Made by a program: the position numbers and the translations under genes. A stretch of 64,000 nt of DNA. It comes from a virus. Within the stretch, counting starts at the first letter, position 1. The number at the start of each line of letters is the position of its first letter. Location: the IMG/VR virus record IMGVR_UViG_3300048590_000360, positions 4,202 to 68,201 of that record; one strand, written 5' to 3'. Below are positions 18,683 to 47,064 of this stretch, in pieces. The notes below the pieces were generated by a model. It was given only the letters and a program-made list of their open reading frames with translations, did not search any database and had not been told where the DNA came from.

Positions 18683-19076
18683 TAAAGGTTTCAAAAAGTT
18701 TCAAAAAAAATTAAAAAAAGTTCTTTTTTGAAATATCTTTTGGCGCGGATGAATTCAGGAACCAATTTTTCCCTTCGTCCTTTCTATGTACATCCATAGT
18801 GAAAACCCGACAAAAAACTGTGGATATATCTCAAAAAACGGTTTCTATATACCGGAACCATAGTAAGACGCGGATACTTTAACCAAACACACATAAAGCA
18901 TTGGTTTAAACATAACTTATACATCATCACTTAAAGTAATACTCAAACCAATACAACCCTTCGTCCTCTCCCATAGCACCTTTCACTATCACCTTTCAAC
19001 GTCCCCTGTTCATCAGTTATCGTTTAACGGTTGTGTGTGTATTATTTGTATGTGTATCTTTCATAAGATAAGGCAC

Positions 19077-19104
19077 AAAAAAAAGGCTCCCCTTTCTGGG
19101 AACC
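19077..19104 (-). terminator. rho-independent terminator after radC-like gene
   Basis: Minus strand: GGTTCCC-agaaa-GGGGAGCC (one G.T pair) followed by T8. Confidence 0.6.
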
Positions 19105-19128
19105 TTGGCGCGGGGAATATGACGCGTG

Positions 19129-19575
19129 TTATAACACTCCGTGATCAGCGAATGAGTAATAAGCCTCTGCCGTTAATATACAATGGTCAATAACTTGCAC
19201 ATCAAACAGATTTAGTGCATCTTTTATCTTTCTGGTTATTTGAATGTCCTGTTCCGACGGTTTCAAATTGCCAGATGGATGGTTATGCGCAATAATAACG
19301 GCAGCGGCCAAGGAATCTAATGAGAATTTAGCAATTAGTTTGATGTCGACAACGGTTCCATAGCATCCTCCTTGTGAAATTTTAACATAACCGGTGACGT
19401 TGTTGGCGCGGTTTAAAGTAATTAAAAAGAAACTTTCATACACGTCTATATCACAGCCCCAAAACTGGCGCATAAATTCGACACTATCCAAAGACCTGGT
19501 AATTTTTACTGAATTCATGTCCGTGGTTACTTTTTGAAGTTTGAATTCTGAAATGGTTTTTTTAAATGGTTTCAT
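19129..19575 (-). CDS. radC: RadC-like JAB/MPN domain protein
   Basis: AHNHPSG.L.PS..D motif (JAMM-like H-x-H-P-S-G) and the size and layout of the RadC family. Confidence 0.85.
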   Translation of the reverse strand: MKPFKKTISEFKLQKVTTDMNSVKITRSLDSVEFMRQFWGCDIDVYESFFLITLNRANNVTGYVKISQGGCYGTVVDIKLIAKFSLDSLAAAVIIAHNHPSGNLKPSEQDIQITRKIKDALNLFDVQVIDHCILTAEAYYSFADHGVL

Positions 19576-19685
19576 GGTTTCTAATTTTTAAAGTTTGTTT
19601 ATTAAAACTGCGATTCCTAAGAAAAGGAGCCCAAAGCATGTAAGAATAGCGCAGAGCACCAGGAATGAAATTAATCGGCGCATGG

Positions 19686-20336
19686 CTAACAAACAAATTG
19701 ATTTGATGCACCAGACATTCCAACATTTTTAGCAAATGGCGCATTATTCCATTTATCAAAATCAAACTGGGATATTCTTTCGGCATCTGCAATAGATACG
19801 TGAATATTAAATCTATTGCAGCTCAAGTCCGGATGAAAGAGCTCATATACATTCCCATCTTCGGATTTAGCGAATACATAACATTTACCGGTAGCATATA
19901 GCAGTTTTGCGTCTTCGATAGATATTTTTAATGTATTTGCCAGTGTTTCAGGGGAAAATTCTTCTCCTTCAGGGATTTCAACGTGGTTTTCGTGGATTGA
20001 ATAAACTCCTAATTTTTTAGCAGCCTTTAACCGTATGGCGCGTGCTTTGTTATTCCTTTTTATTTCCCTTCTATTTTTTAAGGACTCCTTCTTCCGGACC
20101 GCAAGTTCTTTTAATTTTTCCTTAAGCATAGCAGGAGTAACGGTAATCTCTATCATTTCGTGCCGGATGGAACTATTATATTTGGTTCCCCTACCTTGGT
20201 ACCATTGCCTGTCATCGAAGAAGAAAATACTCCCGTCAGGCATTAAAATGCGTTGGGTACCTTTCATTTTTAGCGTGTAAGTTTTTTTAAAGTTCTCTTC
20301 AACAAATTGTCTGGTTATTTCTGTTCTATTTTTCAT
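19686..20336 (-). CDS. hypothetical protein co-oriented with radC-like gene
   Basis: 216-aa ORF with a central Lys/Arg-rich helix. Start context AGAAACCATGAAA is shared with radC. Confidence 0.6.
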   Translation of the reverse strand: MKNRTEITRQFVEENFKKTYTLKMKGTQRILMPDGSIFFFDDRQWYQGRGTKYNSSIRHEMIEITVTPAMLKEKLKELAVRKKESLKNRREIKRNNKARAIRLKAAKKLGVYSIHENHVEIPEGEEFSPETLANTLKISIEDAKLLYATGKCYVFAKSEDGNVYELFHPDLSCNRFNIHVSIADAERISQFDFDKWNNAPFAKNVGMSGASNQFVC

Positions 20337-20356
20337 GGTTTCTTGGTTTTTAAAGG

Positions 20357-20434
20357 TTAATTAAATTTATAAACATAACATTTCATCTCCATCGCCAGCA
20401 TCCAGCGGACACCGTAAATCTTTTTTGGTTTCAT
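20357..20434 (-). CDS. possible 25-aa micro-ORF
   Basis: Shares the 17-nt start context TAGAAACCATGAAACCA with radC (19567-19583 vs 20426-20442). Otherwise unsupported. Confidence 0.2.
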   Translation of the reverse strand: MKPKKIYGVRWMLAMEMKCYVYKFN

Positions 20435-20656
20435 GGTTTCTATTTTTTAGTTTTGGTTTATAGTACATATACGCCATCATCTCATAAATAGTTTCAAAAA
20501 AAATAAAAAAAACTTAAAAAACTTTCAGGTATCTAAAACTCAAGCGCAAAAACTTGGCGCGTGAACAACAAATAACATTACACACCAGGTAAAAAACAAA
20601 ACAGTAAGACAAAACACATATAAATATATCTTTCCTTCAGTTCCTTTCACCAGGTC

Positions 20657-20740
20657 ATTTCCTTCGGTGTCCTTCCTTCGGTGTCCTTCCTTCGGTGTCC
20701 TTCCTTCGGTGTCCTTCCTTCGGTGTCCTTCCTTCGGTGC
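20657..20740. repeat. 14-bp tandem repeat CCTTCCTTCGGTGT x6 (iteron-like)
   Basis: Six head-to-tail copies; the first and last are slightly degenerate. Lies in ORF-free DNA. Confidence 0.9.
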
Positions 20741-20821
20741 ATCAGCGCATTAGCTAATATTACAACAAAGTAGAACGAGTCCGCGGAACGTAGATCGTAA
20801 CGGGGTTAAACCTTTTGTTGT

Positions 20822-20829
20822 TATCTTTG
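20822..20829 (+). promoter_or_regulatory. plus-strand -7 box TATCTTTG with no ORF downstream
   Basis: Matches TAnnTTTG. No ORF above 30 aa follows for about 900 nt on the plus strand. Confidence 0.3.
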
Positions 20830-21741
20830 TACCTGGCACCGGCTAAATGAATCCTTCAACGTGCTGACACTAAAGTACTCATAACATGCATTATGTTAAA
20901 TAGGGATTTTTGTAACCGATTAAAAACTAACGTGTTATATTATTGTCTATACAAGAGTTGTTTTATAACGGGTGAAAAGAAAATATAAAACATTGATTTT
21001 CAAGGATGAACAAAGCAGTGTTATTTTGTCGTGAAAATTCGTTAAAAGGTGGTGTAAAACGGGGAAAGGTGCGGACGGCTGCAATACGTTAAATGTACTG
21101 CGTTATCGTTGCGCGGTTGGTGTCGGGATATAGGTTGAATGGTTTGGCTGTGTTAAAACCGATTTAAATCATATTTTAACGTATCCTTGCTGCGGTGTAT
21201 CTTCTCGGAATGTACCCCATGCCCCTCTGAATCCCGTTTCCTTTTTCGCACATCCCCCCTTCAATGCCATATAACCCCTTGACTGGACCGTTACGTATGA
21301 GATTCAATGGGGTTATTGAGGGATACTGCAGGATGGTGTTTGAAGGAATTGGTATTGGTGAAAGGGGCTGTGTGGAATTGTGATTTGCTTGATGGGTATG
21401 TGGGGTGTCACTGTATTATTGAATTATTTGTTTAAGTGACATTGCATAACTATGTAATTTTCTGGGGTGTTATGTGTTATTACTTAAAGTAATTGTTTAA
21501 TAGTTGTGTGTGTTGATTGGTTGTTTGGTGGTAGGCTTCCAACGGTTTGTTGGTGTTTTATTGGGGGCTGATTGACACTAAGTATGTGATTTTGAGGTAT
21601 GGTTATTTTTTGTGATTTGGTGATAGGATTCCAATAATGACGTGGTATTGAATATTTTTTTTGTTTAATATATACTATGGTGAGTTCTGCTACAAGCTAC
21701 GACACATTTCATTAGTGGGTTCATTCGTAAGCTGTTGTTGA

Positions 21742-21789
21742 TTATAATAGATATTTCAGTTTTTGTACAACGATTTTGTAAATGTCCAT
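21742..21789 (-). pseudogene. 5' stub of the tyrosine recombinase gene (14 identical codons, then L-stop)
   Basis: MDIYKIVVQKLKYL is identical at DNA level to codons 1-14 of 43262..44053. Confidence 0.85.
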
Positions 21790-21834
21790 GCTGTAACCCC
21801 TTATTTTATTGGTATTGTTGTTATATGGTAGTTA
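21748..21834. repeat. 87-bp perfect direct repeat, copy 1 (attI-like junction of array A)
   Basis: Base-for-base identical to 44012..44098. Ends in GTTA of GTTATCGG. Confidence 0.95.
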
Positions 21835-21843
21835 TCGGCAACC

Positions 21844-22206
21844 CTAAGCGGACACCACAAACAATTCAGTTCCATATAGAGAATAGAAAATATTTTGTAG
21901 TTCGTGGACATATTGTAAGTCTGTTAAAACTAATTGACAAACAAAATTGCCTTGAATAAATCTAAATTTATCATCAGCAGTTGATATACCTACATTGTTG
22001 TCTTTGTTGTAAAATTTATCTTGTATTTTGCTGTTTGTAAATCCAAAATCGGTGAGCCATTTATCAGTTAGTTTTACAGGATAAAATGGTTTGTCTAATT
22101 CATTTTGTAAGTACATTGCGAATAAAGAGCCATCCAACTTTATAATATCTTCGTTAAAAGAAACATAGTTTCCTACTCTTATTTGTGTTGCGTTTAAATA
22201 TTTCAT
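21844..22206 (-). CDS. cassette ORF A1, hypothetical
   Basis: 120-aa ORF. TAG stop 13 nt from the junction core. Confidence 0.6.
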   Translation of the reverse strand: MKYLNATQIRVGNYVSFNEDIIKLDGSLFAMYLQNELDKPFYPVKLTDKWLTDFGFTNSKIQDKFYNKDNNVGISTADDKFRFIQGNFVCQLVLTDLQYVHELQNIFYSLYGTELFVVSA

Positions 22207-22255
22207 TTTTTATTTGTTTAAATTGTTAATAATCATTCCGAAAGAAGGGCAGCCG

Positions 22256-22341
22256 ATAACAGCGTATAAAGTAAACCGCCAATCCCCACCCACGTAGCCA
22301 ACGCAATTGTCGGCTTCCCTTATACGCAAAAGCGTTAGCGG
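22256..22341 (+). repeat. attC-like imperfect inverted repeat
   Basis: ATAAC-A-GCGTATAA..TTATACGC-AAAAGC-GTTAGCGG. Confidence 0.6.
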
Positions 22342-22349
22342 AAATGATT

Positions 22350-22592
22350 TTACCCACCCATATCTACAATAGTAGGTTTAATCGGTTCACCGCCAACCGA
22401 AGCGAATAGAGATAGTTTTTTACTTGGTTTACCATCTTCAACCATCCAAGCAATTGAACCGCAACAAGGCGTTGAACCTGTCCAGTTTTTTAATTGAGTT
22501 TTACATACGTTACATTCCACCCAAAAATCACTATCCGCTAACACATTATTTGCGTCAGTGGGGGTGTTGTTTTTCAAATCGTCGTTTTGCAT
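22350..22592 (-). CDS. cassette ORF A2, Cys-rich (zinc-ribbon-like)
   Basis: 80 aa with CNVCK..CCGS. Confidence 0.55.
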   Translation of the reverse strand: MQNDDLKNNTPTDANNVLADSDFWVECNVCKTQLKNWTGSTPCCGSIAWMVEDGKPSKKLSLFASVGGEPIKPTIVDMGG

Positions 22593-22616
22593 ATTATTAA
22601 AATTTAGTTTTTCAAA

Positions 22617-22670
22617 TTAACTGTGGTGGTGTAATGCCCCACCGAACGCAAATAATCGGCACGTTAGCAG
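22617..22670 (+). repeat. attC-like element (variant class)
   Basis: TTAAC-T-GTGGTGG..CCCCACC-GAACGCAAA..CAC-GTTAGCAG. The A3 stop TAA lies inside the core. Confidence 0.5.
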
Positions 22671-22906
22671 TCAGTTTGCCCCAAATCACCGTAAGGCTTT
22701 TGAAGTGCTTTACTACTAATAGCTATTTCTCCGTTAGGAAGTTCATTGCAATGGCAAACCGAACTGCTAACAGGCGGTTGGCGCAATACTTGTTTCATCG
22801 CTTCGATTAAAGTGTGGTACATTTCAGCATCGCTTACTTTGTCATTCTCGCTTTTCGGGTATCTATTGTCTATTACCCATTGTGCTATTTCTTGTATCGT
22901 TTTCAT
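22664..22906 (-). CDS. cassette ORF A3, hypothetical
   Basis: 80-aa ORF. Confidence 0.55.
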   Translation of the reverse strand: MKTIQEIAQWVIDNRYPKSENDKVSDAEMYHTLIEAMKQVLRQPPVSSSVCHCNELPNGEIAISSKALQKPYGDLGQTDC

Positions 22907-22946
22907 ATCAAAATTTTGTTTTAATTATTCGTACTGCGCCAACCGC

Positions 22947-22959
22947 CAAACCGTTATAA
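22947..22959 (+). repeat. hairpin-less boundary AAACC-GTTATAAC
   Basis: Core only, with the conserved 5-nt spacer. Confidence 0.35.
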
Positions 22960-22970
22960 CCAATAGGGGT

Positions 22971-23168
22971 TCAGTCCTTCGATTTAACATTTCGGTTGGC
23001 GGTTTTCTTATTTTTTTGCACACGCTCTTTGGTTTTTTCAAAACCATTAGATTTTGATTCTCGTTCCAAAATATCCTGTGCCAAGTTTTTAAAATCCGTG
23101 TTCTCATCAATGGCTCTCTTGCTCAATGATTTTACACATTCATCTGATAAATCAAGTAGTTTTTTCAT
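22971..23168 (-). CDS. cassette ORF A4, ribbon-helix-helix-like
   Basis: LDLSDECVKSLSKRAIDENTDFKNLAQDILE fits an RHH strand-helix-helix pattern. Confidence 0.45.
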   Translation of the reverse strand: MKKLLDLSDECVKSLSKRAIDENTDFKNLAQDILERESKSNGFEKTKERVQKNKKTANRNVKSKD

Positions 23169-23604
23169 ATCCTTTATTTAGTATTTTTCTACAACTTTCC
23201 GCGTCCTTTCCGTTTGGTTGGTGTTTTAGTTTCCACAAAGAACTACTTGCGTAATGTTTTGCCAAACTTTCGCACTTTTCAAATGGAACAATAGTATAGA
23301 TATACGAAGTAATCTCTATACTGCTTTCGGTATTACCGCCAAACATAGCTTCGCTTTCTTCAACACAACAAGATAAAACTGGTTCACTTTCATTATCTTC
23401 AAATTTTATCACTGAAAGTTCTTTAATTACATCACTTATTGTAGTAGATTTTAATTGTACATTCTTTTCTTTTTTATCAAACCAATGAATGTAATTACGA
23501 TGTAGTGTAGTAAAATCACGTTTTTTCAAAAGCTCAATAGCTTCATTCCTACTTTTAGTAGTTGATTTTAGGTAATGCTGATATACTATTTCTTCTTGTG
23601 TCAT
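23152..23604 (-). CDS. cassette ORF A5, hypothetical
   Basis: 150-aa ORF overlapping A4 by 17 nt. Confidence 0.55.
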   Translation of the reverse strand: MTQEEIVYQHYLKSTTKSRNEAIELLKKRDFTTLHRNYIHWFDKKEKNVQLKSTTISDVIKELSVIKFEDNESEPVLSCCVEESEAMFGGNTESSIEITSYIYTIVPFEKCESLAKHYASSSLWKLKHQPNGKDAESCRKILNKGYEKTT

Positions 23605-23615
23605 AATCGTTATTT

Positions 23616-23906
23616 TTAAAGGGTTTTAAAGTAGTTAAGTAATTGATTAAAATACTTCCCGTAATACTCAATAGCATAGCCATTCATATAAGCAGGTTTT
23701 ACACTTTCTCTTTGTGAGGCAACCACATTAATTCCTAAAGTTTTTGCTGCAAAATCAACAAAGTTTTCAAGTTTGGTGTCGAGCCATTTAATATCACAAT
23801 CCCTAAATTCTCCTTTATTTAATTGGTTTATTATTTTAGTAATCGGGTCTATTAAAGAAACTTCGATAATAAACTGGTCAATTGCTGTGTTGTTTGTTGC
23901 TTTCAT
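23616..23906 (-). CDS. cassette ORF A6, hypothetical
   Basis: 96-aa ORF behind the -7 box at 23931. Confidence 0.55.
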   Translation of the reverse strand: MKATNNTAIDQFIIEVSLIDPITKIINQLNKGEFRDCDIKWLDTKLENFVDFAAKTLGINVVASQRESVKPAYMNGYAIEYYGKYFNQLLNYFKTL

Positions 23907-23930
23907 TTTGTTTCGTTTTTAATTCTGATA

Positions 23931-23938
23931 CAAATATA
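23931..23938 (-). promoter_or_regulatory. -7 box TATATTTG
   Basis: 24 nt before the ATG at 23906; TTTGAAAC lies upstream. Confidence 0.4.
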
Positions 23939-24091
23939 TACCATATATACGATATATACAAGTAAAAGTTTCAAATATTTTAAAACTAACTGATTTTCAA
24001 AGAGAATAATTTTTAAATCCCTCCCTAAAAAAATAAGAAAACTGCTGTTTCTGCTCCGAATTTGGCTTTGTGCTAAACAATCCCTACTGGT

Positions 24092-24146
24092 TATAACAGC
24101 ACATTGGCGGCATTAAAACGACCGCCAATCTGCATCACGTTGTATG
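24092..24146 (+). repeat. attC-like imperfect inverted repeat
   Basis: TATAAC-A-GCACATTGGCGG-cattaaaacga-CCGCCAATCTGC-ATCAC-GTTGTATG. Confidence 0.6.
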
Positions 24147-24489
24147 CAATTATGGCGCAAAAGACCAGGTAAATAGCCAAATATTTTTAGTAAATAGTGA
24201 GTTTAGGATTAGAAAATGACTTAATTTTTGTCAAGCCTTGCAAAGTAGATTTGCTGAAAAGTATTTTCAAAGCGAATTACGCTAAAAGGCTTGCAAAGGT
24301 ATTAGAAAAAAAAGACAAAGTCAAATTTTTATTCTAATACGATCATAAACTGCTATTTATTAAAGAGATGGCTTGGTTTGTAAAAGACTAATCTTATCCC
24401 TTTGGGGCATAAGACCAATATTTTTCAATCATTTAACTAGGTTTTTTGCGGCATAACTGGGACTGTTTTCATAACTTAGCCGAGTTAGA

Positions 24490-24572
24490 ATAACAGCACA
24501 CAACAACAGGTTTGTTCAATGCCTGCCGCCGGCGCAACACAGGCACTGCACAAACCTGCTATACGTTAGGTG
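24490..24572 (+). repeat. attC-like imperfect inverted repeat
   Basis: ATAAC-A-..CAGGTTTGT..ACAAACCTGC-TATAC-GTTAGGTG, with an inner TGCCTG/CAGGCA stem. Confidence 0.55.
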
Positions 24573-24612
24573 CAATAAAAAATAAATTTCCCACCGCACC
24601 AAACTAACAACA

Positions 24613-24879
24613 TTAATCCTTCTTTTTAGAGTATTGAAAAACCAATTGGTTGGCAATGTGGTTAAACTCTAAATTGTTTTTGTCATCGCCTGTAATCTTA
24701 TTGAAAAGATGCGTAGGCATAATGTTTGCCAACGCGTGGAAAAAATGCGTAAGGTTATCGCCTTCTTGTAATTCTTGTTGGTCAATGTGAAAATCACTTT
24801 CGCTATCTTCATCAAAGAGTTCCGCAATTTTTCCACTTAACATTGCCGCATAATGTAAATGTTTTTCGGTCTGTGCCAT
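24613..24879 (-). CDS. cassette ORF A7, hypothetical
   Basis: 88-aa acidic ORF. Confidence 0.55.
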   Translation of the reverse strand: MAQTEKHLHYAAMLSGKIAELFDEDSESDFHIDQQELQEGDNLTHFFHALANIMPTHLFNKITGDDKNNLEFNHIANQLVFQYSKKKD

Positions 24880-24928
24880 AATTGAAATTTGTTTTAAAAG
24901 CCCACGCTAAATTTATTTTTTACAGACA

Positions 24929-25027
24929 CCTAACAGCAGGTAGGCAAAATGCCGCTATGAGCCTGAGTGCTTTGATATTTACATTTGTGGTAAGCGTCAC
25001 TATCGCCTACCTGCAAACCGTTAGCGG
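24929..25027 (+). repeat. attC-like imperfect inverted repeat
   Basis: (A)CCTAAC-A-GCAGGTAGGC..59 nt..GCCTACCTGC-AAACC-GTTAGCGG. Confidence 0.65.
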
Positions 25028-25033
25028 AAAATG

Positions 25034-25369
25034 CTACATCCACTCATCCAACGGAACATTTTTAGTTTTAAATTTTTTGCCTTGAACTGTTAGCACGTAG
25101 TCAAAATTTGCTCTTTGCCAATTACTTTGGTGTATCAACCCCATTCTAACCAATCGAAACAAAATAGACGAATTAAATGTGAACTCACCTTTTGCAGAAC
25201 AACAAGTAACTGTTGATGTACAAGATTGTGTTATCAATTGCCATCCATTTTGAAGACAAAAAACAATCATATTTTGTTTTGGAGTTAGTTTTAATTTAAC
25301 CGCATCATCCGCTAACACGTGTTTTGCGTCAGGCGGGGTTTCGTGGTTAATTGCAGTTTGTGTTTTCAT
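25034..25369 (-). CDS. cassette ORF A8, hypothetical
   Basis: 111-aa ORF. Confidence 0.55.
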   Translation of the reverse strand: MKTQTAINHETPPDAKHVLADDAVKLKLTPKQNMIVFCLQNGWQLITQSCTSTVTCCSAKGEFTFNSSILFRLVRMGLIHQSNWQRANFDYVLTVQGKKFKTKNVPLDEWM

Positions 25370-25397
25370 AATTTAATTTTGTTTAAGTTGAAAGTTT

Positions 25398-25443
25398 GCG
25401 GTTTTCAAACCCGCCCGAACGCAAAGCACCTTAACGTTGTAGG
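25398..25443 (+). repeat. attC-like element (variant class)
   Basis: GCGGTTT-tc-AAACCCGC then CCGAACGCAAAGCACCTTAAC-GTTGTAGG. Confidence 0.45.
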
Positions 25444-25454
25444 CAATTGCCTTG

Positions 25455-25688
25455 CTATAAAAGCGTATTGCCACATTTTCCGCAAAAGTCTTGAACTTTA
25501 CTGTTTACCCTGTTATTTTCGCAATCGCAAGGCAACTGTTCGCTTCGCCCTACAACAGGGGCTATATGTAATACTTGGATCATTGCTTCGTAAATAACTT
25601 CAAGTTGATTTGAGTTAAATTCTTGCTCAACGCTTGTAAAGTTTCCAAATGTATTTAATGCTTCTAATAATATTTTTTCTTTATCCAT
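25455..25688 (-). CDS. cassette ORF A9, hypothetical (C-terminal CxC..CxxC)
   Basis: 77-aa ORF. Confidence 0.55.
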   Translation of the reverse strand: MDKEKILLEALNTFGNFTSVEQEFNSNQLEVIYEAMIQVLHIAPVVGRSEQLPCDCENNRVNSKVQDFCGKCGNTLL

Positions 25689-25733
25689 TTCTATTAAGTT
25701 TTATCGTTAATAAATCGTACTACATATAGCCCC

Positions 25734-25746
25734 AAACCGTTAGCTG
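25734..25746 (+). repeat. hairpin-less boundary AAACC-GTTAGCTG
   Basis: The A10 stop TAA lies inside the core. Confidence 0.35.
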
Positions 25747-26003
25747 CAAGCTGGCAGACTAATCCACGCAATAACGCTTCCGTTTGTATGTTGTGGTCGC
25801 ATATCATTAACCCAAACAATTACCCGATTATCTTCAAGCCTTAAATGACATACATCCATTTTACCATAGTCGGTTAATATTAGCACTGGTTTACCAAATT
25901 CGGGTAATTGTTTTTCTACTGGAATCCAGCCAGCAGCTAACACAGTATTGCCGACAATTGCGGGTTCTGTGGTAGGTTCAACTTTTTGTTTTTTATTGTT
26001 CAT
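25740..26003 (-). CDS. cassette ORF A10, DUF551-like
   Basis: WIPVEKQLP ... VIAWISLP pattern. Confidence 0.5.
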   Translation of the reverse strand: MNNKKQKVEPTTEPAIVGNTVLAAGWIPVEKQLPEFGKPVLILTDYGKMDVCHLRLEDNRVIVWVNDMRPQHTNGSVIAWISLPACS

Positions 26004-26036
26004 TTGTGCAAATTTTGAAGTTTTTTAATTCTAATT

Positions 26037-26069
26037 CCGCAACTGCGGCAATACTCGGAACGTTAGCAC
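26037..26069 (+). repeat. attC-like element (variant class)
   Basis: CCGCA-ac-TGCGG hairpin, then ..CGGAAC-GTTAGCAC. Confidence 0.45.
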
Positions 26070-26074
26070 CAATA

Positions 26075-26308
26075 CTACGAGTGTGCTGCAAAAACCTGAT
26101 TATCCCTTAATCGTATTTGTTCTCTTATCTTTTCGGCTAATTGTTCTACTTCGTCAGAATAAGAACATATAACAGTTCCGTCCTCTTTTTTTAAGGCTAT
26201 AGGCATTGCGTTTGCGTATAAGTCAAATAGTGCCTTAAATAGTTCTTTTCTGTGGCTATCATTCAAAATAGCTTCTCTTTGTTTTTGGTAATATTTTTGG
26301 TCTTTCAT
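26075..26308 (-). CDS. cassette ORF A11, hypothetical
   Basis: 77-aa ORF. Confidence 0.55.
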   Translation of the reverse strand: MKDQKYYQKQREAILNDSHRKELFKALFDLYANAMPIALKKEDGTVICSYSDEVEQLAEKIREQIRLRDNQVFAAHS

Positions 26309-26344
26309 TCTATTTATATTTTGTTGTTAATAATCCGTACTGGT

Positions 26345-26408
26345 GCTAACAGCAAATAAGCAAAACTCCGCTATCGCTACGCTTCGCCTATTTGCAAACC
26401 GTTAGCGG
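26345..26408 (+). repeat. attC-like imperfect inverted repeat (type example)
   Basis: GCTAAC-A-GCAAATAAGC-24 nt-GCCTATTTGC-AAACC-GTTAGCGG. The A12 stop TAA lies inside the core. Confidence 0.7.
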
Positions 26409-26719
26409 TCATTGCCGCCAAGCCCAAGTCCCTTAATTATCCTTTCCATAAAGTCGCCACTTTTTTTCACATCGCAAGTTTCGTTAAACCATTTTTCGTC
26501 CTCTTCATTTTCAGGAAAAACAATGTTGCACCTCATAGCAGTTTCCCTTAGAAGCGGCAACGAACCGCTAACATCGGGTTGGGCTAAATTTTTATTGGCT
26601 ACGAGTTGCGCGTATTCGGAAAGGATAATTGATACTTTCCCTTTCGTGTAGAACTCTTCCCCTTCATCATTAGTATAGTCTGGTGTCCACATTTTCAAAA
26701 CTTCCATTTCTCTTGTCAT
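26402..26719 (-). CDS. cassette ORF A12, hypothetical
   Basis: 105-aa acidic ORF. Confidence 0.55.
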   Translation of the reverse strand: MTREMEVLKMWTPDYTNDEGEEFYTKGKVSIILSEYAQLVANKNLAQPDVSGSLPLLRETAMRCNIVFPENEEDEKWFNETCDVKKSGDFMERIIKGLGLGGNDR

Positions 26720-26777
26720 GCTATTTATATTTAGTCGTTAATAATCCGCCAATAAAAACTTCGCCAACCCGTCCACC

Positions 26778-26827
26778 GTTATAGCACATTAAAACGATGC
26801 TATAACAGCGCATAAGAGAAGTTAAGG
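26778..26827 (+). repeat. core hairpin GTTATAGCA-11 nt-TGCTATAAC plus left arm of a 20-bp inverted repeat
   Basis: The left arm GCGCATAAGAGAAGTTAAGG pairs with 27111..27130. Confidence 0.65.
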
Positions 26828-27085
26828 CTTAGATAGTGCTTCGAGCAAAGATTCTGCATGAAGAACAGCCAACTCACTAATACCACTTGGTGAGAATGTC
26901 ATACTTCCTCCTTGTGTCATTCCTCCGTTACAATTTGCTAATAATCCTTGCATCGCTAATCCTGCAAAATACTCCTTCTTAGTTAAACCATATTGGGTAA
27001 AACTTCCATTAGGATCAAGCATAGAATCTATGTATTCTTTACCTTTAATTCTAGCATTCGTTTGCTGTTCTGTTTCCTTTTCCAT
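26822..27085 (-). CDS. cassette ORF A13, hypothetical
   Basis: 87-aa ORF lying wholly between the two arms of the 20-bp inverted repeat. Confidence 0.55.
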   Translation of the reverse strand: MEKETEQQTNARIKGKEYIDSMLDPNGSFTQYGLTKKEYFAGLAMQGLLANCNGGMTQGGSMTFSPSGISELAVLHAESLLEALSKP

Positions 27086-27110
27086 AATCTAATTTTTTTA
27101 ATTTGTTTCG

Positions 27111-27143
27111 CCTTAACTTCTCCTATGCGCCTACCGTTAGCGG
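27111..27143 (+). repeat. right arm of 20-bp inverted repeat + CTACC-GTTAGCGG
   Basis: CCTTAACTTCTCCTATGCGC, 19/20 complementary to 26808..26827. Confidence 0.65.
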
Positions 27144-27196
27144 CAAGCGTAGGACACCACTCCGAATAAACAGCATCCTACACAAACCGAAAAAGG

Positions 27197-27571
27197 CTAC
27201 ACAATTTCTCTCAAGTGCCGTAAATTGCTTTCTGCCTTTTCATTTAGGTCATTCAAACTGTAAAGCAAACGAATGATTTCTTCCGTTACGCTTTCGGGCT
27301 GTTTTTCTTCCATAGCTTCTTTAAGCGTTGAAGGTTCGTCATACCTTTTAATCGTTTGCAATTTGCTTTTAGTTTCGCATACAATACCATCGTAGCGATT
27401 TACGGCACTTTGTAACCTTTCGATAATCACATTCAATTCAGGTTGATGAACCGAAGTAGGCATATCTTCTGTTAATACTTCTGGCGCAATTTGAATTACT
27501 TTTTCATAATGCACTTCTCCACCCTGAGTTACTTTCAGAATGTCACCGATTTTCAATTTACTTTTGTCCAT
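27197..27571 (-). CDS. hypothetical protein (possible last unit of array A)
   Basis: 124-aa ORF. Its leader resembles the cassette leaders, and AAACCG motifs without TTA lie at 27184 and 27618. Confidence 0.55.
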   Translation of the reverse strand: MDKSKLKIGDILKVTQGGEVHYEKVIQIAPEVLTEDMPTSVHQPELNVIIERLQSAVNRYDGIVCETKSKLQTIKRYDEPSTLKEAMEEKQPESVTEEIIRLLYSLNDLNEKAESNLRHLREIV

Positions 27572-27641
27572 ATTTTTTTAATTAAAATTGTTATCAAAAA
27601 CTGCCACCAGCTGTATAAACCGCAGGTACCGGATAGAATAC

Positions 27642-27851
27642 TCATTGTATCTCCCTCCATTCCTCTGGTGGCGTATCATTCACCATGGTTTCAATCTCAG
27701 CAGCAGGGGGGATGATAACCTCAGTGTCCCCTTGCCGGATGTCAACTGACCCATTACTACCGATGTAGTGTTGTTCTGTTATTCGTACCAGTACCGGTAC
27801 AGGTACAACAACGGTGTACCATTTGGTTACTATAAAGTTATTCTTCGTCAT
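27642..27851 (-). CDS. hypothetical protein
   Basis: 69-aa ORF overlapping the upstream gene. Confidence 0.5.
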   Translation of the reverse strand: MTKNNFIVTKWYTVVVPVPVLVRITEQHYIGSNGSVDIRQGDTEVIIPPAAEIETMVNDTPPEEWREIQ

Positions 27852-33879: not shown

Positions 33880-34262
33880 TAGACGTATTTTTCAAGGAAT
33901 GTCCCTGCATCGTTGTTTTGATTCCCTAATTGTGCTGAAGTATCTGGTGTGAGTTCCTTTTCAAGTAACTTCATTGTTTCAATCATCTTAGGCATCTTAT
34001 CAATGAGAATCATCACTCTGTCGAATGCTTTATCTGAACTTTTAGTTAAGGATGTATATGACAATAAATCAACTTCTTGTTCTTCCCCTTCATTGGATAT
34101 TGTTACAGGGTTATTAAGTAGTTCTCCTAATGCGTCTAATTGTTTTCTGAGTCCGTTGTATAACGAACCCATTGAACTTATCGCTGATAGGTTTCTAATG
34201 TGTAGAATCAGGATGTCAATATATTCCTGATCTGAACATTTTGGTGGCCGTTTAATGTTCAT
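33879..34262 (-). CDS. putative terminase small subunit (position only)
   Basis: 127-aa ORF directly upstream of and overlapping terL. Confidence 0.3.
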   Translation of the reverse strand: MNIKRPPKCSDQEYIDILILHIRNLSAISSMGSLYNGLRKQLDALGELLNNPVTISNEGEEQEVDLLSYTSLTKSSDKAFDRVMILIDKMPKMIETMKLLEKELTPDTSAQLGNQNNDAGTFLEKYV

Positions 34263-34566
34263 CTTCTGTAATGATTACACCATAAGCGTCTATCTGCCGG
34301 ATTAGTTTAAAATCTTTGGTCCCGTCACCTAAGTCCAATGCAATATTGTATGTGTTGTTTTTGTTGTACGCCAATATTTCACCGTCATTAACTTGTCTGG
34401 TGTATTGTCCGTACCCTTCACCGGCACTGAGTACTTTTCCCACACTGGGATATATTGTTTCCTCTGCTGTTTCAGGGATAATAATGCCTGAACGTGTTTT
34501 TCTTTCGTTTACTACAGGGTCTATCAGAATGTAGTCGTTAAGTGCTTTGAATGATTTGATTCTCAT
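34252..34566 (-). CDS. GroES/Cpn10-like co-chaperonin
   Basis: ALNDYILIDPV..ERKTRSGIIIP......GKVLSAGEG aligns by eye with GroES PLHDRVIVK..ETKSAGGIVL..GEVLAVGNG. Confidence 0.55.
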   Translation of the reverse strand: MRIKSFKALNDYILIDPVVNERKTRSGIIIPETAEETIYPSVGKVLSAGEGYGQYTRQVNDGEILAYNKNNTYNIALDLGDGTKDFKLIRQIDAYGVIITEDEH

Positions 34567-43261: not shown

Positions 43262-44053
43262 TTAGATTGGTAAATTCACTTTTGAAAGCAACTGATTTGA
43301 AACGTGCGTGTATATTTCCGTGGTTTTTATATTTGAGTGTCCTGCAATCTTTTGAATAATCCTTGTGTCTGTACCTGATTCAAGCATAGCGGTAAATGAT
43401 GAATGCCTGAGAAGGTGGAAATGATAATCCTTGCCGATGTATTTTTTGACAATTTGGTTGCAACTTGCAGATGAATATTGATTACTGAATTGCCCGTTAA
43501 AAAGGTATTCTGTTGGTTTATATTCTTTGTAGTATTCTCTTAGCGTGGTGAGTATTGTTTGGCTTAGTGGCACGATTCTATCCTTTCTACCTTTGGCGTT
43601 TTTGATGTAAATTATCATTCTACTGGAATCAATGTCGGTTATCTTTAGGTTGATTATTTCTGAAACTCTAAGTCCTACACTAAATGCCAATGATATAATT
43701 GCTTTATGCTTTAAGTTTTCGATGTTATTGATAGACTTAATAAGGTGTTCTCTATCAATTACTCTTGGTAGTTTCTTTTCGGAACGGGGTCTGTTAAAAT
43801 GAACCTTGTCGTATTTTTTGTTTAATCCGTATTTGTATAAGAATCTTATTGCGTTAATAATTTGATTCTGTTGTGATACTGATTTGAACGGATAATTGTC
43901 TAAATACTGCTGAAACTCTTTTGCGGAAACTCTTGATATATGTACTTTACTTTTTGATAGGTATTCGTCAATATAATATAAGTAAACTTTTTGTGTGTTT
44001 TCTGAATAATTTAGATATTTCAGTTTTTGTACAACGATTTTGTAAATGTCCAT
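43262..44053 (-). CDS. tyrosine site-specific recombinase (XerC/D-sized)
   Basis: GLRVSE (Arg), KGRKDR (Lys), HLLRHS (HxxR), GHSNIKTTEIYTHV (His, Tyr). N-terminal SAM-like core-binding domain. 263 aa. Confidence 0.9.
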   Translation of the reverse strand: MDIYKIVVQKLKYLNYSENTQKVYLYYIDEYLSKSKVHISRVSAKEFQQYLDNYPFKSVSQQNQIINAIRFLYKYGLNKKYDKVHFNRPRSEKKLPRVIDREHLIKSINNIENLKHKAIISLAFSVGLRVSEIINLKITDIDSSRMIIYIKNAKGRKDRIVPLSQTILTTLREYYKEYKPTEYLFNGQFSNQYSSASCNQIVKKYIGKDYHFHLLRHSSFTAMLESGTDTRIIQKIAGHSNIKTTEIYTHVSNQLLSKVNLPI

Positions 44054-44098
44054 GCTGTAACCCCTTATTTTATTGGTATTGTTGTTATATGGTAGTTA
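44012..44098. repeat. 87-bp perfect direct repeat, copy 2 (recombinase start + 45 bp upstream; attI-like junction of array B)
   Basis: Identical to 21748..21834. Ends in GTTA of GTTAGGTG, which matches GTTRRRY. Confidence 0.95.
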
Positions 44099-44107
44099 GG
44101 TGCAATG

Positions 44108-44284
44108 CTAAACGACATACACCAACTCAATCTGAAATTTACCATTTTCTCGGTCAATAAATCTTTCTGCATCTTCAACTGTATCAAAGTAGTCAGCAAG
44201 GTATGCTTCTTTACTCCATCCGTAGGCTTCACCACAATAATAAGTTTGAGCCTCAAAATCTTTTACTACATATTTCTTTTCCAT
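44108..44284 (-). CDS. cassette ORF B1, hypothetical
   Basis: ATG at 44284 (MEKKYVVKDF..). The longer track form reads into the hairpin. Confidence 0.5.
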   Translation of the reverse strand: MEKKYVVKDFEAQTYYCGEAYGWSKEAYLADYFDTVEDAERFIDRENGKFQIELVYVV

Positions 44285-44313
44285 TTTTATTTGAATTTGT
44301 GAAAAGCACTGCA

Positions 44314-44397
44314 CCTAACAGCGGTTTTGTGCAAGTTGCCCAACCGGCTCAATGCCCACGCTCCGCAGCCTGACACAAAGCCGCAAAACGTTGGCAG
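44314..44397 (+). repeat. attC-like imperfect inverted repeat
   Basis: (A)CCTAAC-A-GCGGTTTTGTG..42 nt..CACAAAGCCGC-AAAAC-GTTGGCAG. Confidence 0.65.
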
Positions 44398-44402
44398 TAA
44401 TG

Positions 44403-45002
44403 CTACGAGAACACCGACCAACTACCATCTTTCTTATTTATTTTCATTACGCCTTTCTTTGACAAATCTTTATCGTATGGATTTTCAAGAAACAAAAACT
44501 CTGTACTTTCCATTGATTTTAAAGAGTTACAATAAAATTCGCCTGTTTCAATGTTGTAGTAATTGCTATCAACTGAATAAATGCAACTACCCTTTTTTAT
44601 GTAAGGGCTTTTAAATTGGTCAAATTCTTTTTTCTCAACTCCGTTTTTATCAATTATGCACCAGCGACCTTCTAAATGTTTTCTTTGTAATTCAAGTTCT
44701 TTTCGACTTTTATTTGGATAGCATTTTTTAATAAAATCATAATCATAAATTGCTTCTACATATTTAAGAAGCATAAAATAATCTTGTTTTATATCACCCC
44801 CAAATCCACCAACACGATAAAGCGATTTGCTTATTAATTCACCATTTTTTGTAAGGCAAACAAAATCATTACTATTATTATTCCACTCATTCAAATAATC
44901 TTGATTAACCTGAATAGGGGATAACTGCAAAGCACTACTGCCAACATCTGCTTTATGCAAGTGGGGCTGAACTGCTAAATTGAACATTTGTAATTCTATC
45001 AT
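44403..45002 (-). CDS. cassette ORF B2, hypothetical
   Basis: 199-aa ORF. Confidence 0.6.
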   Translation of the reverse strand: MIELQMFNLAVQPHLHKADVGSSALQLSPIQVNQDYLNEWNNNSNDFVCLTKNGELISKSLYRVGGFGGDIKQDYFMLLKYVEAIYDYDFIKKCYPNKSRKELELQRKHLEGRWCIIDKNGVEKKEFDQFKSPYIKKGSCIYSVDSNYYNIETGEFYCNSLKSMESTEFLFLENPYDKDLSKKGVMKINKKDGSWSVFS

Positions 45003-45038
45003 CTTTTGTACTTTATTTAAACATTAGTTTTTCAAATT

Positions 45039-45071
45039 CCCCACCTGACATAAAGCAGTGGGCGTTATGCT
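45039..45071 (+). repeat. attC-like element (variant class)
   Basis: CCCAC..GTGGG hairpin then C-GTTATGCT. The B3 stop TAA lies inside the core. Confidence 0.45.
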
Positions 45072-45271
45072 CCATTGCTACGGAAGTACTCAGAATTAGC
45101 ATTTGAGATAACATTTTTATTCTTTTCTTCCTTCGCTTTGAAATAAGAAACAAGAATACTTTCAACCGTGTTATTAAAACTTGGTCTGTTTGTTTCTTCC
45201 CGTTCTTTTTCTATTGCTTCAACTAACCAATCGTTTTTGTCAGTTAGTTTTAATGATATTCTCTTACTCAT
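45065..45271 (-). CDS. cassette ORF B3, ribbon-helix-helix protein
   Basis: MSKRISLKLTDKNDWLVEAIEKE.. has an N-terminal beta-strand plus two helices. Paralog of 47065..47250. Confidence 0.5.
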   Translation of the reverse strand: MSKRISLKLTDKNDWLVEAIEKEREETNRPSFNNTVESILVSYFKAKEEKNKNVISNANSEYFRSNGA

Positions 45272-45272
45272 A

Positions 45273-45572
45273 TTACCACCAAATTCTTAATCCAATACAC
45301 CAATTTTCTTCTGCATCCTTATATGAATACATATTAGATAACAAACCAAGTTCTTCTATTTTAACTTGTGCTTTTTCTAAAGAACGCCTCAATAAACCAT
45401 CCATATTTGGTGCGTTACCAATATGCAATTCATTTTTACCTTCTTTAGCAGCATCAACCAATCTTTTCTCTAAATTAATTAATTTGCTGTTAGCCATTTC
45501 TTCAATAGCTTGTTCAACAGTCTGCTTTGTGTTTTTCGCAGTAATTTCTTTAAGTTTATCTGTTGTAATCAT
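45273..45572 (-). CDS. cassette ORF B4, hypothetical (upstream partner of RHH)
   Basis: 99-aa ORF, 1 nt from B3, behind the -7 box at 45601. Confidence 0.55.
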   Translation of the reverse strand: MITTDKLKEITAKNTKQTVEQAIEEMANSKLINLEKRLVDAAKEGKNELHIGNAPNMDGLLRRSLEKAQVKIEELGLLSNMYSYKDAEENWCIGLRIWW

Positions 45573-45600
45573 AATTATCTTGTTTTATTAATTTATACGT

Positions 45601-45608
45601 CAAAGGTA
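45601..45608 (-). promoter_or_regulatory. -7 box TACCTTTG
   Basis: 28 nt before the ATG at 45572; TTTGAAAC lies upstream. Confidence 0.45.
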
Positions 45609-45742
45609 ATACTTTTGTTTCAAATAACCTAATCTTTTTTCAATTATTTTTTAAAGCGTTGATAATCAGCCACCACACAAAAGAATAAAAATGTTTGTAG
45701 TGCTTCGATTGAAAGAATGTACTAAATTGACCGCAACGAGAG

Positions 45743-45838
45743 CATAACACGTGCTATAAGCAAGTTTGCCAATAACATTTGTGCTAAATTTGAACATTTC
45801 TGCAAGGCAAACCTGCTCATAGCACCATACGTTGTGCG
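45743..45838 (+). repeat. attC-like imperfect inverted repeat (20-bp stem)
   Basis: CATAAC-AC-GTGCTATAAGCAAGTTTGCC..35 nt..GGCAAACCTGCTCATAGCAC-CATAC-GTTGTGCG. Confidence 0.65.
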
Positions 45839-45841
45839 TAA

Positions 45842-46057
45842 TTAAAGTATCTCTACCAATTTACCACTTTCCAATATTTTGGTTAGGCAATTGCCACACC
45901 TATTTTGTACTGCCGATTCTCCAATAACTTGAAACCTAATCAAGTCATTTAATTTATGATATTCGCCACATCCTAAGCAATTATAACTACGCACAACATT
46001 ATGTATAGCACATTGCTTTTCTACCTTTTTGCTAAATAATTTCTTAATCCAGTTCAT
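45842..46057 (-). CDS. cassette ORF B5, zinc-ribbon-like
   Basis: CLGCG..CGNC pairs. Confidence 0.5.
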   Translation of the reverse strand: MNWIKKLFSKKVEKQCAIHNVVRSYNCLGCGEYHKLNDLIRFQVIGESAVQNRCGNCLTKILESGKLVEIL

Positions 46058-46081
46058 ATTGTTTTTAATTTAGGTTAGTTG

Positions 46082-46128
46082 TGGCAACGTGCCATACACT
46101 CGTCCGTTAGCCGTAATGCCGTTAGACA
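46082..46128 (+). repeat. attC-like element (variant) with two adjacent cores
   Basis: TGGCA-acg-TGCCA, ..CGTCC-GTTAGCCGTAATGCC-GTTAGACA. Confidence 0.45.
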
Positions 46129-46448
46129 TCATCATCACCTTTGACAAGTTCCAACTGACCGACATAGAAATCGCCACAATCTTTTTTATATGCAATGTTT
46201 TTTTGCTTAAATGTTTCTTCTAAATCAGCTTGACATAAGCAATAATCAAGTTCAAGCGTATTGTAATAGTCCTCTTTTATTGGCAAAAAACCAAAGTGAG
46301 TTTCAAATTCTCGTGGCGTTCCTATTTCTACTTCGCCTCTATTTATTACTACGATATGGCACATACGGCTAACAGCGTGTTTATGCAAGCGGGCGGACAG
46401 CTTGCGGTTAATATTTAAGTTCGTGCTATGCCCGCCTGACATAAACAC
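46122..46448 (-). CDS. cassette ORF B6, hypothetical
   Basis: The longest ORF reads through the hairpin at 46368..46463. The internal ATG at 46364 (MCHIVVINRG.., 80 aa) is the more likely start. Confidence 0.45.
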   Translation of the reverse strand: MFMSGGHSTNLNINRKLSARLHKHAVSRMCHIVVINRGEVEIGTPREFETHFGFLPIKEDYYNTLELDYCLCQADLEETFKQKNIAYKKDCGDFYVGQLELVKGDDDV

Positions 46449-46463
46449 GCAAAACGTTAGGCG
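46368..46463 (+). repeat. attC-like imperfect inverted repeat
   Basis: GCTAAC-A-GCGTGTTTATG-caa-GCGGGC..GCCCGC-ctga-CATAAACACGC-AAAAC-GTTAGGCG (perfect 11-bp and 6-bp stems). Confidence 0.7.
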
Positions 46464-46468
46464 TAATG

Positions 46469-46690
46469 CTAATCAACCGAAATTAATTTAGCATAGACCA
46501 TTTTTGTATCGAAATGTTCCTCCAAAACTTTAGTTATTTCTTCTATTGAAATATCATCAGCATTTTTAGGGTTAAATCCATATTCCCATTTACAATATTC
46601 ATCATCTATTGTAATGATAAAAGCACTACGCCTAACAGCACCTAAATCGCTATTGGCTGTTTTGTGGTTAATTGATTTTTCGTGTTCCAT
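46469..46690 (-). CDS. cassette ORF B7, hypothetical
   Basis: 73-aa ORF. Confidence 0.55.
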   Translation of the reverse strand: MEHEKSINHKTANSDLGAVRRSAFIITIDDEYCKWEYGFNPKNADDISIEEITKVLEEHFDTKMVYAKLISVD

Positions 46691-46731
46691 TGTTACTTTA
46701 TTTTAAGTTGATAATTCTTTGTTTTAAATCG

Positions 46732-46763
46732 CCAACAGCGTTTAGCTGCGGAACCGTTATAAA
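46732..46763 (+). repeat. minimal/degenerate attC-like element
   Basis: CCAAC-A-GCG..GC-GGAACC-GTTATAAA. Confidence 0.35.
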
Positions 46764-46771
46764 ACAGTTTG

Positions 46772-46993
46772 CTATTCAAATTTATCACTCCAACATTTCA
46801 TACTGCAACACGGGGCATACTTGCTATTCATCGGCTTACCGCAATCGCAAACCGATTTTATAACATGGGCTAAACCCAATGCTTGCATTATCGTTTCATA
46901 ATAAAATCCCAAATTACATTCTTCATTTTGTACTCCTTTTTCATATACTTTAAACAGTAGTTTCTCTATTTGCTTTCTTTTTTGCTTTGCCAT
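46772..46993 (-). CDS. cassette ORF B8, Cys-rich
   Basis: 73 aa, CDCG..CCSMKC. Confidence 0.55.
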   Translation of the reverse strand: MAKQKRKQIEKLLFKVYEKGVQNEECNLGFYYETIMQALGLAHVIKSVCDCGKPMNSKYAPCCSMKCWSDKFE

Positions 46994-47037
46994 TTCAATT
47001 AAATTTTGTTGTTAATAGTCGCACTGTGTTTAGCCCC

Positions 47038-47050
47038 GTTCCGTTATGCT
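47038..47050 (+). repeat. hairpin-less boundary GTTCC-GTTATGCT
   Basis: Start of the duplicated RHH unit. Confidence 0.4.
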
Positions 47051-47064
47051 CCATTGCTACGGAA

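Follow-up and report, generated by a model that had tools for sequence, protein, structure and literature searches.

A probable integron-like cassette array headed by an insertion junction without its recombinase gene in a tailed phage genome

The region studied here, positions 21742-27643 of a 64,000-nucleotide (nt) stretch of viral DNA (IMG/VR record IMGVR_UViG_3300048590_000360, positions 4,202 to 68,201; this whole stretch is called the window below), holds a row of small genes that we call array A. The window is a portion of a tailed phage genome with about 37% G+C and with genes almost all on the minus strand, virion protein genes among them, and its only recombinase gene lies 22 kb from array A beside a second, similar array (array B). 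Array A comprises 12 complete units of 290-1186 bp (21831-27144) followed by a degenerate thirteenth; each unit opens at G↓TT (the arrow marking the presumed crossover point) and usually carries one small phage-type open reading frame (ORF) together with a structured site that overlaps the 5' end of this ORF (Table 1). A preliminary description, made from the letters alone, had listed 13 unit boundaries, and all are present in the sequence, with the sole correction that the boundary GTTATAACC starts at 22953 and not at 22952. It had also reported minus-strand ORFs of 65-150 amino acids (aa) throughout, which holds for the ORFs that are present; unit A4 has three, along with a 180-nt non-coding stretch, and unit A5 has none. 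A5 shows stop codons in all six frames, its longest listed ORF being a 46-aa one with a GTG start on the plus strand, and has no Rfam match; its boundaries are intact and its site is good, and it may carry a small RNA or a regulatory element or be an emptied cassette.

A Pfam search with 20 cassette proteins gave nothing above cut-off, and five cassette proteins match PHROGs phage families, all of them of unknown function. In A3, A9 and A11, the ORF stop codon (TAA on the minus strand, at 22664, 25740 and 26402) is the TTA of the GTTA boundary; therefore, these ORFs end at the crossover point. The AT-rich leader said to precede the start codon in most units was found in a subset of them only, namely A1, A8, A10, A11 and B7, with a looser version in A3; the copies are repeats of 42-47 nt with 66-79% identity. 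The leader 9-mer is not enriched in the window as a phage-wide promoter would be (50 matches versus 47 expected), and no excess of sigma-70-type promoters was found in the region. The right end of the array had been called unclear, and indeed A13 is degenerate: it keeps only half-sites, with AAACCG lacking the following TT, at 27184 and 27618, and a search for its left box or left arm found none, so that we limit the confident extent of array A to 21748-27144.

At its left end, array A is headed by a perfect copy of the insertion junction that stands upstream of the recombinase gene. The segment 21748-21834 is 100% identical to 44012-44098 over 87 nt, which cover the first 14 recombinase codons, the 45-nt region upstream of them and GTTA; the identity stops right after GTTA on the right side and at codon 14 on the left side. 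The truncated recombinase stub noticed earlier at this place is thus exactly 14 identical codons long (read from 21789 to 21748), and a search for a further or decayed recombinase remnant to its left (19000-21900) found none. The likeness drawn at the outset to clusters of attC sites lacking an integrase is borne out by the sole recombinase gene lying 22 kb away, with nothing but the stub at array A; unlike a plain cluster of this kind, array A retains a perfect copy of the insertion junction.

Table 1. Features of array A and of related parts of the window (window coordinates; a dot marks an undefined strand; the left box is that of the same unit).
Feature	Coordinates	Strand	ORF(s)	Folded site	Own left box	Remarks
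14-codon recombinase stub	21748..21789	−				MDIYKIVVQKLKYL, then diverges and stops; tblastn, 14/14 residues equal to recombinase residues 1-14
attI-like insertion junction copy A	21748..21834	.				87 nt, without recombinase gene; putative crossover at G↓TT of 21831
Unit A1	21831..22334	−	21844..22206 (120 aa)	22252-22342 (91 nt)	GCCGATAAC at 22252	unit start GTTATCGGC (21831), complementary to own left box; protein matches phrog_10066
Unit A2	22334..22663	−	22350..22592 (80 aa)	22534-22671 (138 nt), ATG in loop	TCCGCTAAC at 22534	unit start GTTAGCGGA (22334), pairs with own left box
Unit A3	22663..22953	−	22664..22906 (80 aa)	22763-22961 (199 nt)	ACTGCTAAC at 22763	
Unit A4	22953..24139	−	22971..23168, 23152..23604, 23616..23906	24089-24147 (59 nt)	GGTTATAAC at 24089	
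Unit A5	24139..24565	.	none	24496-24573 (78 nt)	GCACACAAC (8/9 match)	
Unit A6	24565..25020	−	24613..24879 (88 aa)	24926-25028 (103 nt)	ACACCTAAC (8/9 match)	protein matches phrog_37916
Unit A7	25020..25436	−	25034..25369 (111 aa)	25308-25444 (137 nt), ATG in loop	TCCGCTAAC at 25308	
Unit A8	25436..25739	−	25455..25688 (77 aa)	25548-25747 (200 nt)	CCCTACAAC (8/9 match)	
Unit A9	25739..26062	−	25740..26003 (87 aa)	25933-26070 (138 nt)	GCAGCTAAC at 25933	protein matches phrog_924
Unit A10	26062..26401	−	26075..26308 (77 aa)	26342-26409 (68 nt)	GGTGCTAAC at 26342	
Unit A11	26401..26778	−	26402..26719 (105 aa)	26564-26786 (223 nt)	ACCGCTAAC at 26564	unit start GTTAGCGGT (26401), pairs with own left box
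Unit A12	26778..27136	−	26822..27085 (87 aa), entirely within loop	26798-27144 (347 nt)	TGCTATAAC, 20 nt after unit start	arms 22 nt long
Unit A13 (uncertain)	27136..27623	−	27197..27571 (124 aa)			half-sites AAACC-G without TT at 27184 and 27618
Large terminase gene	31789-33879					
Recombinase gene	43262..44053	−	263 aa			Xer/IntI-like tyrosine recombinase, the only one in the window; presumed to act on array A in trans
Array B	44095-47460	−				adjoins recombinase gene; 7 complete units and a truncated 8th; junction copy B at 44012-44098; junction and array listed together as 44012..47051
Portal gene	56557-58959					

The feature that ties each unit together is a complementarity between its start and a box further right in the same unit. 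The first 9 nt (GTTnnnnnn) are the reverse complement of the unit's own left box (nnnnnnAAC), the complementarity extending to about 16-20 nt, and show no such relation to the box of the hairpin directly next to them. Pairing with the own box rather than with the adjoining one is the signature of integron cassettes. We counted the GTT 9-mers with an exact reverse complement at most 1500 nt to their right and compared the counts with 200 dinucleotide-preserving shuffles. There are 24 such 9-mers in the whole window, 17 of which are unit boundaries of the two arrays. Array A has 13 (1.7 ± 1.3 in the shuffles, with a maximum of 6) and array B has 7 (0.5 ± 0.7), while the three backbone segments that make up the remaining 55.7 kb have 2, 0 and 2 versus 3.8, 2.6 and 2.7 expected, that is, at or below chance. 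When a match of at least 8/9 is accepted, all 19 units of both arrays match their own box, and, over positions 5-16, the own box is matched at 158 of 228 positions and the adjoining box at 71 of 228.

Site anatomy was read for 12 sites of array A and 7 of array B. On the plus strand, the order is a left box (NNNNNYAAC), a spacer of 1-2 nt, an arm of 10-22 nt, a loop, the complementary arm, a spacer of 5-6 nt (mostly AAACC) and finally G↓TT. The six full hairpins of the preliminary description were recovered, and its view that the remaining boundaries are hairpin-less proved wrong, as all 12 sites have arms, which in A2, A3, A7, A8, A9, A11 and A12 lie 65-300 nt apart. In these wide-loop sites, the unit's ORF begins inside the loop, which takes in the leader, the start codon (ATG) and as many as about 50 codons of the N-terminal part. 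The sequence CCGAACGCAAA, noted before as common to two variant boundaries, is the right arm of A2 and A7 and lies within 1-2 nt of the positions given for it.

For the prediction of DNA folding, each site was rejoined with its own right box, i.e., the form expected in an excised circle. The reconstituted sites are far more stable than their in-array versions, and the minus strand folds better than the plus strand in 14 of the 14 sites short enough to be folded: −28.9 versus −16.1 kcal/mol for A1 (minus-strand z of −9.9) and −20.7 versus −11.6 kcal/mol for A10, with −24.7 kcal/mol (z of −8.7) for the minus strand of A4. This advantage of the minus strand is explained by mismatches that turn into G-T pairs on that strand. 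From the outside in, the predicted minus-strand fold consists of an outer stem, a 9-bp stem ending in YAAC/GTTR, a one-sided bulge of 4-5 nt (GKTTT), a stem of 10-22 bp with a conserved bulged base, and a loop of 11 to about 300 nt.

The recombinase presumed to act on these sites combines the Pfam domains Phage_integrase and SAM_4 (SAM-like). Its NCBIfam scores, all below the curated cut-offs, are 169 bits for XerA_Arch, 150 for the integron integrase (in two pieces), 134 for XerC and 133 for XerD; for the integron models proper, it reaches 150 bits against a cut-off of 265 with TIGR02249, in two stretches, and 97 against 435 with PRK15417. The closest solved relative is the Pyrococcus XerA (4a8e, E 4e-37). 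VchIntIA (2a3v) aligns in two blocks, and the insertion specific to IntI, the I2 helix, is missing: 26 aa separate residues 179 and 206, versus 74 aa in VchIntIA. With this insertion missing and the scores below cut-off, the enzyme is not an IntI by the defining criterion. The insertion junction lies 45 nt upstream of its ATG, and the sites of array B, which begins there, belong to the same families as those of array A. Array B contains a 209-nt duplication (45063-45271 and 47042-47250, 91% identity), so that B3 and B8 each start with a copy of an ORF of 61-68 aa; B8, truncated and site-less, marks the distal end of this array.

Evidence that units move came from unit A2, whose 80-aa protein belongs to a cluster of 75 members. 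Two contigs (L123 and L124) carry A2 at 96.7% identity over exactly 22334-22666 with unrelated flanks, the shared stretch starting with the G of GTTAGCGGA and ending with the GTTA at the following boundary, and a third contig (L121) carries it at 84% identity. In L123, A2 directly abuts a junction-like gtgtatatgtta followed by GTT; this sequence lies at about 1073 in locus coordinates and, as no recombinase gene is present in the 6.6-kb contig, is a second example of a junction of this kind. Two further contigs (L125 and L126), compared with window positions 22333-22541, have an A2 homolog that is 94.7% identical up to the left box and then diverges, and many A2-family proteins are alike in their C-terminal 75% or so only, which suggests that a 5' module made of leader, N-terminus and arms may be exchanged at the left box. 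The start-plus-box module of A12 is also seen elsewhere (L001 and L121).

Gain and loss of whole units can be followed in cultured phages. The Polaribacter phages Freya_1 to Freya_10 (MT732463-MT732472; loci L107-L120) encode an integrase that is 39% identical to the recombinase of the window; their authors gave genome sizes of 44.0-48.9 kb and read the integrase as a sign of possible lysogeny, with no mention of cassettes (PMC8776804). We compared the array region of seven of these genomes. The sequence left of the junction is identical in all seven isolates (...ttattgttgttataggggt, followed by GTT), after which come six different first units. Compared with Freya_10, Freya_9 is without the 307-bp first unit, and Freya_8 is without an internal unit of 902 bp, the ends being joined exactly at GTT; Freya_6 has a 472-bp unit that Freya_10 lacks, placed right after the junction and ahead of the following unit; Freya_1, Freya_2 and Freya_5 have progressively shorter arrays. 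All these changes are exact at GTT, and the compared array regions show no other differences. The preliminary description had opposed boundary-precise gain and loss of units to a fixed early-gene block, and it is gain and loss that are seen in the Freya isolates, along with boundary-precise exchange of A2. A second copy of the junction was looked for in the Freya genomes and none was found. Gain or loss of whole units at G↓TT beside the integrase gene corresponds to the size differences between the Freya isolates.

Similar platforms are spread among viruses and bacterial chromosomes. Recombinases 55-70% identical to that of the window occur in IMG/VR contigs, and chains of sites with own-box complementarity, in constant orientation, stand immediately upstream of the recombinase homolog in six loci (L001, L002, L003, L005, L006 and L011), two of which (L003 and L006) have about 20 units each, the L011 recombinase being just 40% identical. 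A junction motif, TATAT-nnn-A followed directly by GTT, is kept beside recombinase homologs and in phage Freya, and two sister contigs (L004 and L005) share an identical left half of the junction and then carry different units. A covariance model built from seven sites and run over 1.25 Mb (E ≤ 0.001) gave 104 matches. Eight are in the window, without exception on the minus strand and within array A or B (E of 1.5e-27 for A2, 4e-32 for A7 and 2e-12 for A9), and 92 of the 96 in the other loci are on the recombinase strand, nearly all of them upstream of the gene.

The chromosomal arrays, made of uniform sites of about 127 nt, were found in Chryseobacterium, Epilithonimonas, Flavobacteriales metagenome-assembled genomes and Ignavibacteria; the loci are L075 (Chryseobacterium sp. 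Leaf394), L066, L074, L083, L086 and L064 (Ignavibacteria). Their recombinases are 37-44% identical to that of the window and likewise lack the insertion. Sites A2 and A7 are 70-75% identical to the chromosomal sites over about 130 nt and share with them a stem of 18 pairs, 5 of which show compensatory changes, with one bulged T. In the chromosomal arrays, ORFs point away from the recombinase and the site is at the ORF 3' end, as in the classical integron layout, whereas in the phage arrays, ORFs face the recombinase or junction and run in the same direction as the phage genes, and the site overlaps the ORF 5' end. Given this opposite orientation, the phage cassettes form a distinct, ORF-inverted pool.

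Taking the architecture of the sites together with their statistical significance, their spread among relatives, the boundary-precise sharing of A2 and the turnover in Freya, we consider it very probable that array A, like array B, is a cassette array of an integron-like platform for site-specific recombination that the phage carries and that works with a non-IntI enzyme. The 263-aa recombinase would cut and exchange one strand at G↓TT of a folded, presumably single-stranded site; recombination between junction and site would insert a circular unit beside the junction, and recombination between two sites would excise units, with replication presumed to resolve the single-strand exchange as in integrons. 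The window's own recombinase is the presumed catalyst, and the cleaved phosphate would lie within GTT. Array A would be loaded and unloaded in trans via its perfect 87-nt copy of the junction, itself without a recombinase gene.

Several points weigh against this reading. The recombinase has no I2 helix, a feature regarded as essential for integron integrases and reported as the acquisition that moved them from double- to single-stranded DNA recombination (PMC7790495); Smyshlyaev et al. found that the insertion is not fully conserved in a subgroup of "integron-like" recombinases (PMC8138268). Loops of up to about 300 nt exceed those of known attC sites, and, because the better-folding strand is the mRNA-sense strand, part of the structure signal could reflect an RNA function. 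Array A is also degenerate at its distal end. That the recombinase serves the array A junction in trans is what we infer from sequence identity, and this junction is presumed to be active today. Finally, a search for close relatives in IMG/VR and in JGI metagenomes, using the flanking 216-aa and 197-aa proteins and the large terminase, gave one distant match only, so that turnover of array A between sister phages is not directly visible.

Some of these points would also suit an inactive relic: a single past event would have copied cassettes and a junction fragment, with array B or an array in a host as the source, and the result would now be a fixed accessory block. Array A has no recombinase gene and a worn distal end, and the array A-bearing contigs from other samples keep the same unit order: those with unit A1 have identical unit order or are too short, except for one 1.46-kb contig with different neighbours. 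We hold this to be improbable, as 12 of the 12 units have intact sites with own-box complementarity, and A2 is demonstrably mobile elsewhere. In addition, the 87-nt junction matches the copy next to the recombinase gene at 100% identity, and yet the units that follow the two copies are wholly different, which argues for recent turnover or for selection on the site.

Very unlikely, and largely refuted, is the idea of a fixed early-gene block without DNA rearrangement, in which the hairpins would serve regulation as terminators, RNA-processing sites or structures for translational control. It would account for the stabler fold of the mRNA-sense strand and for start codons and leaders inside loops, and the structures may have an additional role at the RNA level, given that strand. 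A terminators-only explanation, one of the alternatives set out at the start, was tested: the region has one terminator-like site versus 5.3 expected, located to the left of the array head and not within the array, and T runs are absent after the site stems. The pairing of a unit start with its own distant box instead of the adjoining one is not foreseen by an RNA hairpin model. Also against this idea, identity between shared units starts and stops exactly at GTT, Freya isolates differ by whole units at GTT, and in dozens of loci the sites occupy the recombinase strand upstream of a recombinase homolog.

Just as unlikely is a shuffling by homologous recombination between repeated promoter/stem-loop modules, without any dedicated recombinase. 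Such PeSL modules of T4-type phages are small ORFs flanked by a stem-loop and a leader in variable (hyperplastic) regions, and their shuffling is ascribed to homologous recombination. Some units here do have common leader/arm repeats of 40-50 nt with 66-79% identity. In our arrays, by contrast, breakpoints are fixed at one trinucleotide, G↓TT, beside a recombinase gene, the partners share just 4-9 nt at the junction, units are gained at the junction, which is not a hairpin repeat, and the arm sequences of neighbouring units are unlike. Least probable of all is the acquisition by the phage of a classical bacterial integron fragment (IntI/attC), which can invoke the homologous sites and recombinases of the Flavobacteriales and Ignavibacteria chromosomal arrays and the attC clusters already published in phages (PMC9892861), and which is at odds with a recombinase failing the IntI hallmark, with ORFs inverted relative to the chromosomal arrays and cargo resembling phage proteins, and with a platform and junction conserved over several phage lineages whose recombinases are 39-70% identical.

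The integron-like platform that we favour resembles integrons in many respects. A tyrosine recombinase gene stands beside an attI-like insertion junction followed by the array of units, and the first units of Freya differ exactly there; the imperfect hairpin site that closes each unit is bounded by ...YAAC and GTTR...; the crossover would be at G↓TT, with the box after the crossover belonging to the next unit; the "bottom" strand is predicted to fold better, with bulged bases in the stems, and the cargo is mostly of unknown function. There are also differences. The 263-aa recombinase is devoid of the IntI-specific insertion; the boxes fit YAAC/GTTR only and not RYYYAAC/GTTRRRY; the sites measure 59-347 nt versus 57-141 nt for attC, with a one-sided spacer (1-2 versus 5-6 nt) and loops reaching about 300 nt that hold the 5' end of an ORF; the ORFs point toward the junction and have their own leader inside or beside the site, whereas classical cassettes are promoterless and point away from attI; the system is carried by a tailed phage, in which two junctions are present for a single recombinase. 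Because of the ORF orientation, no common junction promoter can drive the cassettes.

Xer-type systems offer other parallels. In phages of the CTX-phi type, Xer-type recombinases devoid of the I2 helix exchange one pair of strands on a single-stranded DNA hairpin, and replication completes the event; there, a whole filamentous phage enters the host dif site by means of host enzymes, whereas here a phage enzyme would move small cassettes. The pdif modules of Acinetobacter plasmids are small gene modules bounded by tyrosine-recombinase sites and found in various contexts. Unlike our sites, those of pdif/Xer modules (IMEX) have no hairpin; they are dif-like double-stranded sites of 28 bp that alternate in orientation. 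A 28-bp dif-type core (two 11-bp arms and a 6-8-bp spacer) is absent at the boundaries of array A, which share AAACC-GTTR only; the arms on either side vary from unit to unit and have their pairing partners at a distance.

With its 12 sites of the system's own type and the nearest recombinase gene 22 kb away, array A is comparable to a cluster of attC sites lacking an integrase (CALIN). Qi et al. (2023) described small attC clusters in 17 phages, together with bacterial integron fragments (PMC9892861); recombination sites of the cassette type, which we also see here, were found by them in virulent phages, including a Polaribacter phage. Their clusters differ from ours in having 2-4 sites, found with IntegronFinder/HattCI and tested with the bacterial IntI1, and no phage-native platform, phage recombinase, junction or isolate turnover was described in virulent phages; Freya, Danklef and Xer-like recombinases are not mentioned (PMC9892861). 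The IntegronFinder 2.0 survey reported almost no integrons in Bacteroidetes (PMC9024848). As surveys key on the IntI insertion, Bacteroidota may hold far more integron-like arrays than they report. No earlier description of the system was found in the searchable full-text literature, subscription-only papers aside.

We lean slightly toward a broader proposal, namely an unrecognised class of integrons in which a compact Xer-like recombinase handles folded sites without the I2 helix, widespread in Flavobacteriales and Ignavibacteria, and of which an ORF-inverted version was adopted by tailed phages as an active platform for accessory genes; one recombinase could then serve several junction-headed arrays in trans, and, since their arrays share one site family, phage and host could in principle trade genes directly. 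If true, integron-type gene capture would be native to and active in viruses and not a matter of occasional hitch-hiking fragments, the hypervariable accessory regions of phage genomes would have a concrete molecular cause, and the need for the IntI-specific helix in cassette recombination on folded DNA would be called into question. As Polaribacter sp. HaHaR_3_91 and Freya_1-10 are in culture, cassette gain and loss can be directly measured.

Elsewhere in the window, no tRNA gene was found, a megablast search of the window gave no nucleotide match among GenBank phages, and an Rfam search of 19000-48500 gave no match. Immediately left of the head of array A lies a gene-free region of 1.4 kb (non-coding stretch 20337-21747), inside which a 14-nt unit, TCCTTCCTTCGGTG, is repeated in about 6 tandem copies at 20659-20739; this could be an iteron-type origin or another regulatory region. 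The phage also encodes a 2862-aa ORF (an observation covering 85-8673 and 34252-38254), and the precomputed annotation of locus L026 lists a Cpn10-like protein and several glycosyltransferase-like proteins downstream of the terminase.

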